Positions 13,818 to 25,297 of a stretch of DNA of 30,262 nt are shown piece after piece. The translations under genes and the position numbers were made by a program. The DNA is taken from IMG/VR virus record IMGVR_UViG_2534681935_000039, positions 1 through 30,262 of that record. The stretch is one strand, 5' to 3'. This stretch comes from a virus (taxonomy: Duplodnaviria; Heunggongvirae; Uroviricota; Caudoviricetes). Position 1 is the first letter of the stretch. Each line of letters starts with the position of its first letter. Below the pieces are notes generated by a model. It saw only the letters and a program-made list of their open reading frames with translations, did no database searches and was not told the origin of the DNA.

Positions 13818-13832
13818 TTACCTTTCAGGTAA
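13818..13832. promoter_or_regulatory. operator-like dyad S1: TTACCT-TTC-AGGTAA
   Basis: Perfect match to the recurring 15-bp dyad; 17 bp downstream of a consensus TTGACA (13796-13801) on the plus strand, in the leader of the tRNA unit. Confidence 0.5.
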
Positions 13833-14154
13833 CCAAAGAGTTCATTCCGGTTACTAACCTGACTGGCTTGTCGTTAAATTGAACAGGTGGAGTGAGCTTT
13901 TATTTTGAGCAGTACGGCGTATGGCACATGCGCCGATAGCGGTCTGGATACGTTTAAGGGGCACCCTCCCTTGCTCGGGCAAACGAACCATGTAGCCGGA
14001 ATGTGCAAGTCGAGCGGTTTTATTCCGCGCACGGGGATTCACCATCCCGGCGATTCGGTGTGACGCCTCGGAAGAGACGAGGGTACAACGATGAGAGCAT
14101 TTATGGAGCCGCGACAAAGTGTGGTGCCTTAACAGGCTAAGTGCTCTCAGCGTT

Positions 14155-14231
14155 GTGGCATTAGCTCAGTTGGACAGAGCAACCGCCTTCTAAGCGGTTG
14201 GTCGCAGGTTCGAATCCTGCATGCCACGCCA
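14155..14231 (+). tRNA. tRNA-Arg (anticodon UCU, reads AGA)
   Basis: Cloverleaf read directly: acceptor GTGGCAT/ATGCCAC, D-arm GCTC-AGTTGGACA-GAGC, anticodon stem ACCGC/GCGGT with loop CTTCTAA (anticodon TCT at 14189-14191), T-arm GCAGG-TTCGAAT-CCTGC, discriminator G, encoded CCA. Confidence 0.85.
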
Positions 14232-14274
14232 GAATCACGCCTAAGGACCGTGATGCCAGAAGTTCCAGGGGCTT

Positions 14275-14316
14275 GGCGGTGATGGTTTCCCTTGAAGGAC
14301 TATCACCGCCCTTTTT
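14275..14316 (+). terminator. rho-independent terminator after the tRNA
   Basis: GGCGGTGAT ... ATCACCGCC 9-bp stem (inner TCC/GGA pairing in the loop) followed by CTTTTT. Confidence 0.5.
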
Positions 14317-14429
14317 ACAGCAGGACGCCATTGCGATGACTTCATGCTGTAAACCCGTGCAGCCACGGAAGGCATAACTCATTGCTTCCAGTTCGCCCGG
14401 TTCGCCTGGCATTTTTTTAAGGTGAGATT

Positions 14430-14810
14430 ATGAACGACCAGCAAATCGAAAAAGAAATCGTTGAGAAAGGCAAAACCGCTCCGCGAATCACCCCGCAGCA
14501 CATCGAAGACGTGATTAAAAGCGAGCATTACTTTACTGCTTATGATGGACGAAATGGTGCCATTTCCAGCAACGAATATTGTGGCAGGGAAAAACCAGAA
14601 GAAGGCGATCGTGATTTATCACCATTGAAGTTGCTCACTTTCTGCGTACTGGTGCTGAAGAATGGCTTCACCGTCACCGGAGAGAGTGCCTGTGCAAGTC
14701 CGGAAAATTTTGATGCAGAAATTGGTCGGAAGATTGCCCGGCAGAATGCTGTAAACAAAATCTGGATGCTCGAAGGTTACTTGCTGAAGCAGAAGTTAAG
14801 CGAGCAATAA
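14430..14810 (+). CDS. gp49/gp66-like phage protein of unknown function (126 aa)
   Basis: Conserved block LLTFCVLVLKNGFTVTGESACASPENF...IGRKIARQNA recalled from the N4 gp49 / Sf6 gene 66 family; AAGGTGAG RBS before ATG 14430; opposite strand to flanking structural genes. Confidence 0.5.
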   Translation: MNDQQIEKEIVEKGKTAPRITPQHIEDVIKSEHYFTAYDGRNGAISSNEYCGREKPEEGDRDLSPLKLLTFCVLVLKNGFTVTGESACASPENFDAEIGRKIARQNAVNKIWMLEGYLLKQKLSEQ

Positions 14811-14830
14811 CACCGTGACATGTCACAAAC

Positions 14831-14857
14831 AGCCAGCCGATGAGCTGGCTTTGTTTT
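14831..14857. terminator. bidirectional terminator between convergent genes
   Basis: AGCCAGC-CGATGA-GCTGGCT stem-loop followed by TTGTTTT on plus strand and preceded by AAAC, so U-run on the minus transcript too; between stop 14810 (+) and stop 14901 (-). Confidence 0.5.
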
Positions 14858-14900
14858 ATCCTCACCAGAGGATATCAGCAGTATTATCCCCACCAGCGGA

Positions 14901-16376
14901 TTAAGCATAAGGGTCATAATCCGTTATGGCCCTTCCCTGCTGGCTTTGCTGTCCAGGTATATTTATGCGTTTCGAGACCGGGAAAGCAAACGTCAGCAAT
15001 AGCGCATCGCCTTTCCCCGGCGAACGCCCAAGTCGCTCTTTGATATCTTCCTTCGGTTCGATAACGATTTTACCGTCCACGCGAACTTTGTACTCTGCCG
15101 TCGACAGGTCGTCCGCTGTTTCCTGGTCATCCAGCATGCCGCCGAGCCTCAGCCATGTCTTGCATGAGTTGAACATCTCCCCACGCTTGTTGAGCATCTG
15201 CGGGTCAGTAGACGCGCCACCGAACGGAACAAGTTGCCATGTACGACCCCAGCCGTCACCGATTGACTTCAAACCGGTTCCGTAACCGAAGTCGATGAAC
15301 ACCGCGTCAGCCTGATACTGGTCTTCAAAGTCAGCGATACGCTTCGCCATAATCAGATCGTCGGTAGTCTTGTTGCCAGTCCACAGCACCTTACTGTGTA
15401 GCCCCTGCCGCAGGTATATCACAGCGTCATCAACGCCGGAGTATGCCGGGTCAACGCCGATTATCACCGGAGCATGTGCCACCTGCGCAGCGGTTACCAC
15501 CCGTTTCATTGCCTCGTCAGTAAGACCGGTAGGGATAAACTGCAATTCAGATGCATCAGGGAATATGCCACGCACACGGATTTTAACGAAGTCGCTGTCT
15601 TCCCCGTAGTCATCAACCCATTTCTGCAACTGCTGTTTGTTAGTGCCTTCCACCGTCCGGCTGTCAATCTGCGCAGTTTTCCAGCGATGTTTATATTTGC
15701 GGAAACATTCGCGGAAACGTCCGGTGTTACGTGTAGGGTTTCCGAACGCCACCCAGATAATCTCAGTGTCTTCGTCCGTAAGCGCACCCTCAGCAACTTC
15801 CCACACCAGATCCGCAATGTTCGACGCTTCATCGAATACCACGATGATGCGTTTGCGCTCGTTGTGTAGTCCGGCGAATGCCTCAGTGTTGTGCTCAGAC
15901 CAGGGGATTGCGTCAGCTCGCCACCGCTTGTCGTGCCCAGGGTCATTGCTGTACATCGCGGTAGCGGTACAGGTAAACCAGTCTTTCGTGATAGCAAGGT
16001 TCGACCACTTGATAATTTCCGGCCAGGTCTTCGTTCGTAGCTGGTTGTCGGTGTTGGCGGTCACCACGACCTTACAATCCTCGCAAGTGGACATGCCCCA
16101 GTTGATCAGCATTGAGATGAATGCGGATTTACCAATACCGTGACCAGAAGCGCGTGCCAGCATAAGCGGCTGATAGCGCGTCTCGGGATTCTGCAGGTGA
16201 TCACGCATCTCTCGGAACGCATCGGCCTGCCACTGACGTGGGCCGGTAGCATGTGCCAGTTCAGTACCCTCTTCCCCCCACGGGAACGCATAGAGGGCAT
16301 AGCCAAGCGGATCGTGAGTGAACCCTGCAATATCCTCGATCAACTGCTCTTCAGGAGATAACGCTGTATCTGTCAC
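14901..16376 (-). CDS. terminase large subunit (491 aa)
   Basis: Walker A-like GHGIGKS near N-terminus, acidic motifs VVFDEA and VDPAYSG typical of terminase ATPase/nuclease; ATGA overlap with upstream small subunit gene. Confidence 0.75.
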   Translation of the reverse strand: MTDTALSPEEQLIEDIAGFTHDPLGYALYAFPWGEEGTELAHATGPRQWQADAFREMRDHLQNPETRYQPLMLARASGHGIGKSAFISMLINWGMSTCEDCKVVVTANTDNQLRTKTWPEIIKWSNLAITKDWFTCTATAMYSNDPGHDKRWRADAIPWSEHNTEAFAGLHNERKRIIVVFDEASNIADLVWEVAEGALTDEDTEIIWVAFGNPTRNTGRFRECFRKYKHRWKTAQIDSRTVEGTNKQQLQKWVDDYGEDSDFVKIRVRGIFPDASELQFIPTGLTDEAMKRVVTAAQVAHAPVIIGVDPAYSGVDDAVIYLRQGLHSKVLWTGNKTTDDLIMAKRIADFEDQYQADAVFIDFGYGTGLKSIGDGWGRTWQLVPFGGASTDPQMLNKRGEMFNSCKTWLRLGGMLDDQETADDLSTAEYKVRVDGKIVIEPKEDIKERLGRSPGKGDALLLTFAFPVSKRINIPGQQSQQGRAITDYDPYA

Positions 16377-24506: not shown

Positions 24507-24508
24507 AT

Positions 24509-24523
24509 TTACCTGTTGGGTAA
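24509..24523. promoter_or_regulatory. operator-like dyad S8: TTACCT-GTT-GGGTAA
   Basis: Third site of the divergent immunity region, nearest the repressor gene. Confidence 0.5.
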
Positions 24524-24578
24524 TATTGCTTTAAATTGAATCATCTACTGATTCATATATGAGGCGATTTTCCAGAAA

Positions 24579-25163
24579 ATGAAAAGTATCCAGGACGTCC
24601 GCAGGCAAAATCTCAACGACTTGATCGACCGTGAATTCAATGGTGTTCAGACGCGGATGGCTGAAAAACTTGGAACTCAGGCAAATCTGGTAAACCGCTG
24701 GGCTCTTGGCAAGAAGGTTATCGGCGACCAGGTTGCGCGAAAAATTGAAGCTGCCGCCAATAAACCCCGTAACTGGCTTGATATCGATCGCTCGCTTTCT
24801 CAGGAAGGTTTTCAGCCTGTCGGACCAAGCGACATTGGTCAGCTGGCGGCTCACAACCTGGAACGCTGGATGAGCGAAAGCCGCGACCTTTCAACACAGG
24901 GAAAACTTCACCGCGCATCCGGCGTAGCCCAGGTGACAATCAGCCGCCTGTTAAACAATGAGGTCAGCGTTTCCATTTCCACCCTGGAGAATGTTGCATC
25001 CGCATTCGGGCGTCACGGCTATGAATTACTGATTCACCCGCACGACCCTGCGACCATCAACTATGATCGCTCGCGCTACGCATTGTTACCCGAAACCGAG
25101 AAAGCAAAGATCGAAAGTTACATTGAATTTGTCATCAACCAGAACGAAAAAAACAAACAATAA
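24579..25163 (+). CDS. prophage repressor candidate with two tandem HTH (XRE-like) domains and no recognisable LexA/S24 peptidase domain (194 aa)
   Basis: N-terminal QTRMAEKLGTQANLVNRWALGKK and second LSTQGKLHRASGVAQVTISRLLN HTH-like segments; divergent from the cro-like gene; own terminator downstream. Confidence 0.55.
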   Translation: MKSIQDVRRQNLNDLIDREFNGVQTRMAEKLGTQANLVNRWALGKKVIGDQVARKIEAAANKPRNWLDIDRSLSQEGFQPVGPSDIGQLAAHNLERWMSESRDLSTQGKLHRASGVAQVTISRLLNNEVSVSISTLENVASAFGRHGYELLIHPHDPATINYDRSRYALLPETEKAKIESYIEFVINQNEKNKQ

Positions 25164-25183
25164 AATCATATTTTTCAGTAAGT

Positions 25184-25207
25184 AAGCCGCCTTCTGGCGG
25201 CTTTTTT
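25184..25207 (+). terminator. rho-independent terminator after the repressor gene
   Basis: AAGCCGCC-TTCT-GGCGGCTT stem-loop followed by a T-run. Confidence 0.65.
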
Positions 25208-25220
25208 ATTGCCTATTTGA

Positions 25221-25235
25221 TTACCTAATGGGTAA
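25221..25235. promoter_or_regulatory. operator-like dyad S9: TTACCT-AAT-GGGTAA
   Basis: 20 bp upstream of the TTGACA -35 of the pL-like promoter. Confidence 0.5.
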
Positions 25236-25254
25236 TTTTTTTAACTCATATCTA

Positions 25255-25283
25255 TTGACATCAAACCAGATACGCATAATTAT
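25255..25283 (+). promoter_or_regulatory. pL-like promoter: -35 TTGACA (25255-25260), 17-bp spacer, -10 AATTAT (25278-25283)
   Basis: Consensus -35; -10 only moderate; flanked by S9 and S10 with the same spacing as the promoter at 22132-22160. Confidence 0.5.
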
Positions 25284-25297
25284 TACCTCAACGGTAA
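25283..25297. promoter_or_regulatory. operator-like dyad S10: TTACCT-CAA-CGGTAA
   Basis: Overlaps the last base of the -10 and the predicted transcription start. Confidence 0.5.

Follow-up and report, generated by a model that had tools for sequence, protein, structure and literature searches.

Intergenic TTACC-N5-GGTAA dyads of a phiV10-like Escherichia coli prophage as probable repressor operators

In the sequence record of the podovirus epsilon15 (AY150271.2; Kropinski et al. 2007), seven features of 16 to 17 bp are annotated as "protein_bind, repressor, lysogeny", and each of them coincides with a TTACC-N5-GGTAA dyad; one each precedes terS, gp3, the tailspike gene, and the gene that follows the replication module, and the other three are on the pL side. 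Rep, the repressor of phage SPC32H (PDB 5D50 and 5D4Z; Kim and Ryu 2013; Kim et al. 2016), is described in PMC9638917 and PMC9986798 as a tetramer that sits on palindromic sites with pairs of DNA-binding domains from different dimers and is released by the tetrameric antirepressor Ant. Here we analyzed a 30,262-nucleotide stretch of viral DNA (IMG/VR record IMGVR_UViG_2534681935_000039, positions 1 to 30,262; hereafter the window), in which an earlier reading (the original prediction) had noted a 15-bp dyad, TTACCT-N3-AGGTAA, at ten intergenic sites. The recurrence of the dyads was confirmed to be highly non-random, and sequence comparison makes it likely that they are operators of a 194-aa prophage repressor homologous to SPC32H Rep, and probably also of a 76-aa Cro-like protein.

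The window region is 97.5 to 99.8% identical to phages phiV10, PAS61, phiv142-3, and ZX5 and to O157 typing phages 9 and 10, and it is a phiV10-like E. coli prophage belonging to Uetakevirus, the genus of temperate epsilon15-like podoviruses. Prophages of this type, whose relatives include O157 typing phages, are common, and of 5426 complete E. coli genomes, 564 matched the immunity region of the window. The window has the opposite orientation to the phiV10 record and covers the structural, packaging, nin-like, replication, and immunity genes, with the gene 19 homolog at one end and the integrase gene at the other; the tailspike, antirepressor, and lysis regions lie outside it. In strain GF4, the same prophage adjoins guaA. 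The window shares genus, gene order, and dyad core with epsilon15, and palindromic sites are found in its rep/cro region and also at other units, where they correspond in position to the annotated epsilon15 sites (terS, gp3, pL, and the post-replication gene), although the two repressors are only 42% identical. Because the epsilon15 annotation already proposes a genus-wide set of repressor operators, the window dyads are solid but largely expected. Not marked in the epsilon15 record, though present in its sequence, are the three OR dyads, the proximal member of each 62-bp pair, and the post-cro site described below; these are what the original list of ten adds to it. In phiV10-type records, terminators are annotated but operators are not.

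A pattern search recovered all ten dyads: those starting at 13818 and 22180 match TTACCT-N3-AGGTAA exactly, five have one mismatch (22118, 24124, 24509, 25221, and 25283), and three have two (16987, 24461, and 24492). At two or fewer mismatches, the window contains 12 matches, compared with 0.71 expected from 100 dinucleotide-preserving shuffles (largest count, 4). The two extra matches, at 4281 and 24300, lie in coding DNA, and a position weight matrix (PWM) derived from the ten sites gives them only 6.0 bits, which is chance level; the sites themselves score 18.5 to 28.2 bits (15.9 to 27.3 in a leave-one-out test), and the next-best position in the window scores 7.9. The true conserved core is TTACC-N5-GGTAA, the T at position 6 and the A at position 10 being preferences only. 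When the PWM was instead derived from epsilon15 and BUCT711 sites alone, nine of the ten dyads were the top nine in the window, and 24492, whose right half is GGTGC, was weak (7.2 bits). We also found an eleventh site that had been missed, at 16969 to 16983 (TAACCACCTTGGTAA), 18 bp from 16987 and kept in relatives.

When coding intervals were defined from the open reading frame (ORF) list and the phiV10 annotation, intergenic DNA made up 1730 of the 30,262 bases (5.7%), and all ten dyads fell within it, as had been claimed (0.057^10 = 4 × 10^-13). No match in coding sequence came near the site scores. The core was likewise rare in the host: 115 kb of E. coli lysogen chromosome outside the prophage contained no exact copy and six copies with one mismatch, a one-mismatch density of 0.05 per kb versus 5.8 per kb in the intergenic DNA of the window (approximately 100-fold rarer). 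Both density checks, coding and host, thus came out in favor of the original observation. Intergenic DNA is AT-rich, as is the rim of the motif, but recurrence by chance or base composition is refuted: none of the 100 shuffles reached the observed count, the other intergenic segments of the window carry no site, and the dyads stand at homologous positions across the genus.

With at most one mismatch, the core occurs 14 to 18 times in each of phiV10, Tyrion, BUCT711, epsilon15, and SPC32H, nearly always at homologous intergenic positions. In alignments of six regulatory regions from six phages, the half-sites were invariant, the central 5 nt were variable, and the surrounding DNA had diverged. 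Conserved −35 elements were seen in the same alignments (CTATTGAC at pL and at the DUF1064/RuvC promoter after the replication genes, and TTGATTTTT at PR), and the spacings were conserved: 62 bp at pL and at the DUF1064/RuvC promoter, 17 + 30/31 bp at OR, and 18 bp at terS. The same layout was present in Pseudocitrobacter and Pseudescherichia prophages, two loci from a scan of genome contigs, with repressors 59 to 61% identical. A population test used 75 distinct IMG/VR loci with an identical repressor (a scan of viral contigs gave only 100%-identical copies). The minor-allele fraction was 0.011 in the half-sites (80 positions), 0.118 in the center (40 positions), and 0.034 in other intergenic DNA (451 positions); the half-sites were therefore approximately 10-fold less variable than the center (Mann–Whitney test, p = 1.6 × 10^-6 against the center and p = 0.009 against other intergenic DNA). 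Constrained half-sites around a free spacer indicate a protein that reads two 5-bp half-sites rather than an RNA stem. Had the dyads acted as RNA hairpins, they could have been processing sites, elements of Shine-Dalgarno translation control, or terminator auxiliaries, and it is true that the dyads at 22118 and 16969 overlap ribosome-binding sites, that four dyads follow terminators, and that some of the intergenic regions concerned also have annotated RNase III sites in the epsilon15 record. The predicted hairpins, however, are weak (−1 to −6 kcal/mol), the loop varies among phages but the stem sequence does not, compensatory changes being absent, and the distal dyads lie upstream of −35 elements, hence outside the transcript to be controlled; an RNA function is very improbable.

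Two regulatory proteins are encoded in the immunity region:
24579 to 25163, + strand: 194-aa repressor, homolog of SPC32H Rep (PDB 5D50)
24194 to 24424, − strand: 76-aa Cro-like protein in divergent position, matching phrog_35 "transcriptional repressor" (E = 5.6 × 10^-13)

The 194-aa protein had been described as a tandem helix-turn-helix (HTH) protein, in agreement with a Pfam HTH_3 match at residues 106 to 147 and a weak YdaS-type match at residues 21 to 61. Pfam gave only HTH families and no S24 peptidase domain, so the repressor is not RecA-cleavable. In a phmmer comparison with PDB, it matched 5D50 over its full length (residues 1 to 190, E = 4 × 10^-42) and 5D4Z, the tetramer structure of Rep residues 92 to 198 (E = 4 × 10^-20). 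An HTH N-terminal domain followed by a C-terminal oligomerization/Ant-binding domain, in a protein homologous to SPC32H Rep, was thus found, and the SPC32H genome carries the same dyads. The two Rep proteins are only 42% identical, whereas SPC32H Ant has 88% identity to p24 of phiV10, a phage whose Rep is identical to that of the window. In the phiV10 record (20543 to 20891, outside the window), p24 is immediately preceded by a LexA box (CTGTATAAATACACAG), and a further dyad lies between p24 and the tailspike gene. Within the presumed recognition helix, residues N36, L37, V38, R40, and W41 do not vary across the four repressor clades (42 to 78% identity), which matches the invariant half-site. 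Overexpression of the ZX5 repressor, an identical protein, blocked lytic growth, abolished free phage, and lowered holin and endolysin mRNA by >99.9% (PMC9782041); no operator is defined in that paper. The 76-aa protein had no Pfam family match and is, by analogy with Cro, probably a second binder of the same dyads, judging by its divergent position and its repressor family.

A protein-homolog search with the Rep N-terminal domain gave only fragments of near-identical proteins, and distant relatives were reached by a tblastn search of a phage collection with the N-terminal domain of the PseuP_224 repressor. These homologs, whose C-terminal domains differ from that of Rep, have two to four dyads beside their own genes, and the dyads change with the recognition helix. 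Pseudomonas phages PseuP_224 and JBD68 (helix SY[IV]SRC) have T[TA]ACC half-sites with a 4-nt spacer: PseuP_224 has three exact TTACC-N4-GGTAA dyads and an imperfect one, upstream and downstream of the repressor gene, and JBD68 has two imperfect copies. Turba (helix AQVSSF) has TAACC-N5-GGTTA dyads, and Acinetobacter phage MD-2021a (helix AYLSQI) has dyads of the TAGTA type. The C-terminal domain of the PseuP_224 repressor is an S24 peptidase. Because the dyad type tracks the recognition helix, the dyad follows the N-terminal domain of the repressor and not the host. The four phages form a natural specificity series for the Rep-type HTH family, and a compact repressor/operator pair with natural specificity variants could be of use in engineering.

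This co-variation also bears on whether a host transcription factor reads the dyads and wires the prophage into a host regulon. The palindrome of the E. coli antitoxin MqsA, given as AACCT-N3-AGGTT in PMC4894380, is one candidate: its ACCT-N3-AGGT core is contained in four dyads (13818, 22180, 24124, and 24492), and the TAACC-N5-GGTTA dyads of the Turba-type Rep homolog resemble the AACCT palindrome. The window, however, has TACCT where MqsA has AACCT at the flank, the core is TTACC-N5-GGTAA with position 6 unconserved in epsilon15-type phages, and the motif is essentially absent from the 115 kb of host DNA. Phages of Escherichia, Salmonella, Klebsiella, and Enterobacter retain the dyads, which co-vary with the phage repressor, and a comparison with solved structures gave no sequence similarity of the Rep N-terminal domain to MqsA. 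A host factor is accordingly a most unlikely reader of these sites.

The dyads head nearly every transcription unit, as originally proposed. In and around the immunity region, the following elements were located:
24080 to 24107, − strand: conserved promoter-like TTGATC-16-CAAAAT (post-cro)
24124 to 24138: dyad TTACCTTTGAGGTAC, ~11 nt past the cro terminator, with its center at ~−58 of the promoter-like sequence
24149 to 24172, − strand: intrinsic terminator after cro, directly upstream of 24124 and annotated in phiV10
24461 to 24475: putative OR1-like operator, within the spacer/−10 of the rightward (cro-directed) promoter
24492 to 24506: putative OR2-like operator, the weakest site, conserved in position
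24509 to 24523: putative OR3-like operator, overlapping an invariant TAATAT that faces the repressor gene
25184 to 25209, + strand: repressor-gene intrinsic terminator, immediately before 25221
25221 to 25235: putative distal pL operator, directly past the repressor-gene terminator; the epsilon15 homolog is annotated as repressor binding
25255 to 25283, + strand: pL-like promoter TTGACA-17-AATTAT from the promoter scan, its −35 invariant in six phages
25283 to 25297: putative proximal pL operator, 62 bp from 25221 and beginning at the last −10 base

A second 62-bp pair lies at the DUF1064 operon:
22118 to 22132: putative proximal operator of the DUF1064 operon, abutting the −10 and covering +1 and the ribosome-binding site
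22132 to 22160, − strand: promoter-like TTGATT-17-TTTAAT, read from the sequence between the 22118 and 22180 dyads
22180 to 22194: putative distal operator of the DUF1064 operon, 62 bp upstream of 22118 and 12 nt past the preceding terminator
22206 to 22228, − strand: conserved short-stem terminator GCGC-GATA-GCGC followed by T7, read from the sequence upstream of 22180

The pL and DUF1064 promoters share one module, which consists of the terminator of the preceding unit, 12 nt, the distal dyad, ~20 nt, a −35 of the form CTATTGAYW, 17 nt, the −10, a proximal dyad from the last −10 base, and the start codon; the dyad centers fall at about +1 and −62. The −35 of the DUF1064 promoter, CTATTGA, is invariant in six phages. 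The epsilon15 homolog of 22180 (35906 to 35922) is annotated as repressor binding, and the homologous terminator is annotated in phiV10 at 35038 to 35057. A PR-like promoter found by the promoter scan overlaps 24461. At 24124, a proximal partner dyad is absent, and only the upstream dyad is present. Right after this site, at 24094 to 24119 (− strand sense), comes an AACCA-N4-TGGTT inverted repeat with GATC and a T7 run behind it. This element, which hardly differs among six phages and shares bases with the −35 of the promoter-like sequence after cro, could be a weak terminator or a site for another protein.

Before terS, two dyads follow a terminator:
16969 to 16983: second terS dyad, with one core mismatch, overlapping the terS Shine-Dalgarno sequence
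16987 to 17001: dyad TTACCGTTATGGTAA, 11 nt past the terminator preceding terS; its epsilon15 homolog (12 to 27) is annotated as repressor binding
17013 to 17038, − strand: intrinsic terminator, upstream of the terS dyads

Both dyads sit between the terminator and the terS ribosome-binding site. The original prediction had placed 16987 at a terminase (late) promoter, and the dyads there are real, but no sigma-70 promoter was recognizable by the scan. In phiV10 and RefSeq, terS starts at a TTG (window 17047, − strand), which puts the terminator and both dyads inside the ORF. An ATG at 16966, preceded by AAGGTGG, agrees with the terS starts of epsilon15, SPC32H, and Tyrion, and the Pfam Terminase_2 match starts at residue 18 of the shorter protein. 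The operator map thus corrects the annotation of the terS start codon, as it does for an ORF called antisense to a tRNA (see below).

Between the structural operon and the tRNA unit, the elements are as follows:
13756 to 13770: degenerate proximal site with a lone TTACC/GGTAA half, 62 bp from 13818, within the invariant block ATATGTGGTTAAATTGGTAATAATTTAA
13818 to 13832: exact dyad TTACCTTTCAGGTAA, separating the gp3/portal operon (− strand) from the tRNA unit (+ strand), conserved in six phages
14155 to 14231, + strand: tRNA-Arg(UCU), preceded by 13818 and a conserved leader of ~320 nt, with a terminator behind it at 14275 to 14310

The epsilon15 homolog of 13818 (2931 to 2947) is annotated as repressor binding, and the block upstream of gp3, read from the sequence at 13756, does not vary among six phages. 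On the − strand, this block lies 62 bp downstream of 13818 and contains, besides the lone GGTAA half-site just before gp3, the motif TATGTGGTT. On the + strand, the left half of the 13818 dyad, TACCTT, forms a weak −10 facing the tRNA, and a conserved TTGACA precedes it by 17 nt. Assignment of 13818 to the tRNA leader was therefore right in that the dyad overlaps a putative tRNA-facing promoter, but the place is a divergent gp3/portal–tRNA region rather than a simple leader site. With the degenerate half-site before gp3, 13818 has the same 62-bp geometry as the pL and DUF1064 modules. In view of this invariant block and of the overlap with the weak −10, we read 13818 as a putative distal operator for the promoter of the structural operon, one that would at the same time cover the tRNA-facing −10. 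The simple promoter scan found pL and the PR-like promoter but matched nothing at terS, at gp3, or at the tRNA-facing TTGACA; promoters assigned to these three places are therefore tentative. The motif TATGTGGTT recurs at 13766 to 13774 and 22138 to 22146 (− strand) and, in phiV10, also at 20923 to 20931; on the lytic strand, it stands upstream of gp3, just upstream of the DUF1064 −10 region, and upstream of the tailspike gene. The three copies in phiV10 compare with 0.23 expected, and the motif may be a shared promoter element or a site of another regulator.

As for which protein binds the dyads, the principal rival to Rep is another phage protein, the 76-aa Cro-like protein or an AlpA/PerC-type regulator, which would organize the lytic program rather than lysogenic silencing. 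The phage does encode AlpA- and PerC-family regulators, the Cro-like repressor-family protein is encoded divergently from Rep, and the dyads at 24124 and before terS overlap no recognizable promoter core. Against such a main binder, the dyad type tracks the helix of the Rep N-terminal domain even with a different C-terminal domain (S24 in PseuP_224), the three dyads in the Rep/Cro divergent region and the pairs over the pL −10/+1 form the classic repressor geometry, and the epsilon15 curators assigned the sites to the repressor; sharing of the sites by Cro is compatible with Rep as the main binder. We consider this rival unlikely, though the least unlikely of the alternatives. Several points nevertheless weigh against the assignment of the dyads to Rep and the functions built on it. 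Sequence by itself cannot tell which HTH protein reads the dyads, Rep or Cro included; the match at 24492 is weak; the fall in ZX5 lysis-gene mRNA could be indirect; and the looping and roadblock steps described below rest on geometry only. Since terS has no recognizable sigma-70 promoter and 24124 is the only, upstream dyad of its unit, simple promoter occlusion is insufficient. Leaving aside the primary epsilon15 and SPC32H papers, we found no Rep-binding data for phiV10-type phages, and a literature search on Uetakevirus operators gave nothing further.

In lambda, adjacent operators spaced by 24 bp are combined with 2.4-kb looping between OL and OR. P1 C1 and the stoperators of L5 gp71 exemplify one repressor with many sites spread over the element; the P1 and L5 operators are asymmetric, and the L5 stoperators are orientation-dependent and lie within transcribed regions. 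The window resembles lambda in its divergent repressor and cro genes with three operator-like sites overlapping PR and PRM, and in its repressor gene followed by a same-direction terminator and a pL-type promoter with its own sites. It differs in that the sites are not confined to OL and OR, conserved ones being present at 13818, 16969/16987, 22118/22180, and 24124, and five or more other units having extra putative operators; in the lack of a RecA-cleavable domain; and in the 62-bp pairs combined with a predicted tetrameric repressor. The contrast originally drawn with lambda, in which the repressor acts only at OL and OR, is therefore fair, but multi-operator phage repressors are an already established kind. 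Mycobacteriophage repressors with many operators are treated in PMC1934351, and RP4 KorA, one repressor with many sites across its element, in PMC2665229. The window shares with P1 C1, mycobacteriophage L5/L1 gp71, and KorA the scattering of sites that head or interrupt units, and its four dyads directly past terminators recall stoperators; on the other hand, the window dyads are symmetric and mostly overlap or flank promoters, and in Pfam and PDB comparison those proteins are unrelated in sequence to Rep.

The core of the original prediction, operators of the lysogenic regulator well beyond OL and OR, is thus well supported by position, conservation across the genus, population-level constraint, co-variation, and the epsilon15 annotation, with binding by the regulator itself a prediction. 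We are less confident in direct silencing of every unit, in looping, and in roadblocking than in the assignment of the dyads to Rep and Cro. In the mechanism that we propose, each TTACC half-site would be read by one N-terminal HTH domain, with the central 5 bp left unread. The prophage would be organized into several short units (PR-cro, post-cro replication, DUF1064/nin-like, terS-terL, gp3-portal-structural, pL, and tRNA, together with tailspike/ant, lysis, and int outside the window), every one of them headed by at least one operator. At pL and DUF1064, the proximal dyad over the −10/+1 would occlude RNA polymerase, and the distal dyad, 62 bp away (approximately six helical turns, on the same face), would be held by the second DNA-binding unit of the same Rep tetramer, so that one tetramer would clamp either promoter in a small loop; the geometry and the published tetramer suggest such looping. 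OR, with its three dyads (17 + 31 bp), would act as a lambda-type switch. Four of the putative operators are placed 10 to 12 nt past intrinsic terminators, and Rep bound there might, speculatively, also be a roadblock that insulates units. Induction would proceed via the LexA-controlled antirepressor Ant, encoded outside the window. The fullest form of the scheme, which we offer tentatively and think rather doubtful, would do without a dedicated late activator or antiterminator: all units would be locked by one tetrameric repressor through 62-bp micro-loops and post-terminator roadblocks, with timing set by a hierarchy of operator affinities.

If this single-repressor gating were true, the early, replication, packaging, structural, lysis, integrase, and tRNA/structured-RNA units would be locked alike, and the order of expression after induction would reflect the operator-affinity hierarchy together with the Cro-like protein on the same sites. 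The set of ~14 sites per genome provides a testable map of prophage silencing and of the units released by LexA and Ant. No new biological principle is implied, as the arrangement is annotated in epsilon15 and the repressor family is structurally characterized.

Several further features of the prophage were noted. The tRNA leader (13833 to 14154, + strand) contains blocks conserved across Uetakevirus clades, such as TCACCATC.YGGCGRTWCGGTGTGACRCCTCGGAAGAGACGAGG, and a variable insert enclosed by a long stem, GAGAGCATT...AGTGCTCTC; the leader blocks are retained in Tyrion, which seemingly lacks the tRNA. The folding z-score of the leader is −2.6, compensatory changes were seen at 5 of 50 predicted pairs (in only four sequences), and no Rfam family matched at the gathering threshold or at E ≤ 1. 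The epsilon15 record annotates an RNase III site in the homologous region, and the leader is a candidate structured RNA co-transcribed with the tRNA. On the opposite strand, an 83-aa ORF (14161 to 14412, − strand; phiV10 hypothetical protein p04) is antisense to tRNA-Arg(UCU) and its terminator; it is probably a mis-call, because SPC32H and RefSeq E. coli records annotate a tRNA there instead. Just beyond the right end of the window (GF4 28348), a conserved dyad-like site, TTACCTTAAAGGTAT, lies between attP/attL and the integrase start. At 2021 to 4534 (− strand), four ORFs represent a broken homolog of gene 18 of phiV10, which encodes an 837-aa virion protein; the nine gap openings at 96.8% identity relative to the intact GF4 copy reflect either a decaying (defective) prophage or sequencing errors. 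Finally, the DnaT-like gene (23014 to 23829, − strand) contains iteron-like direct repeats at 23393 to 23532, in which a 24-bp unit, ATCCCGTTTTTGGGATCATTCAAC, is repeated 2.6 times at 100% identity and followed by 3.1 copies of an 18-bp unit; by analogy with lambda O, these are probably a replication origin embedded in the initiator gene.

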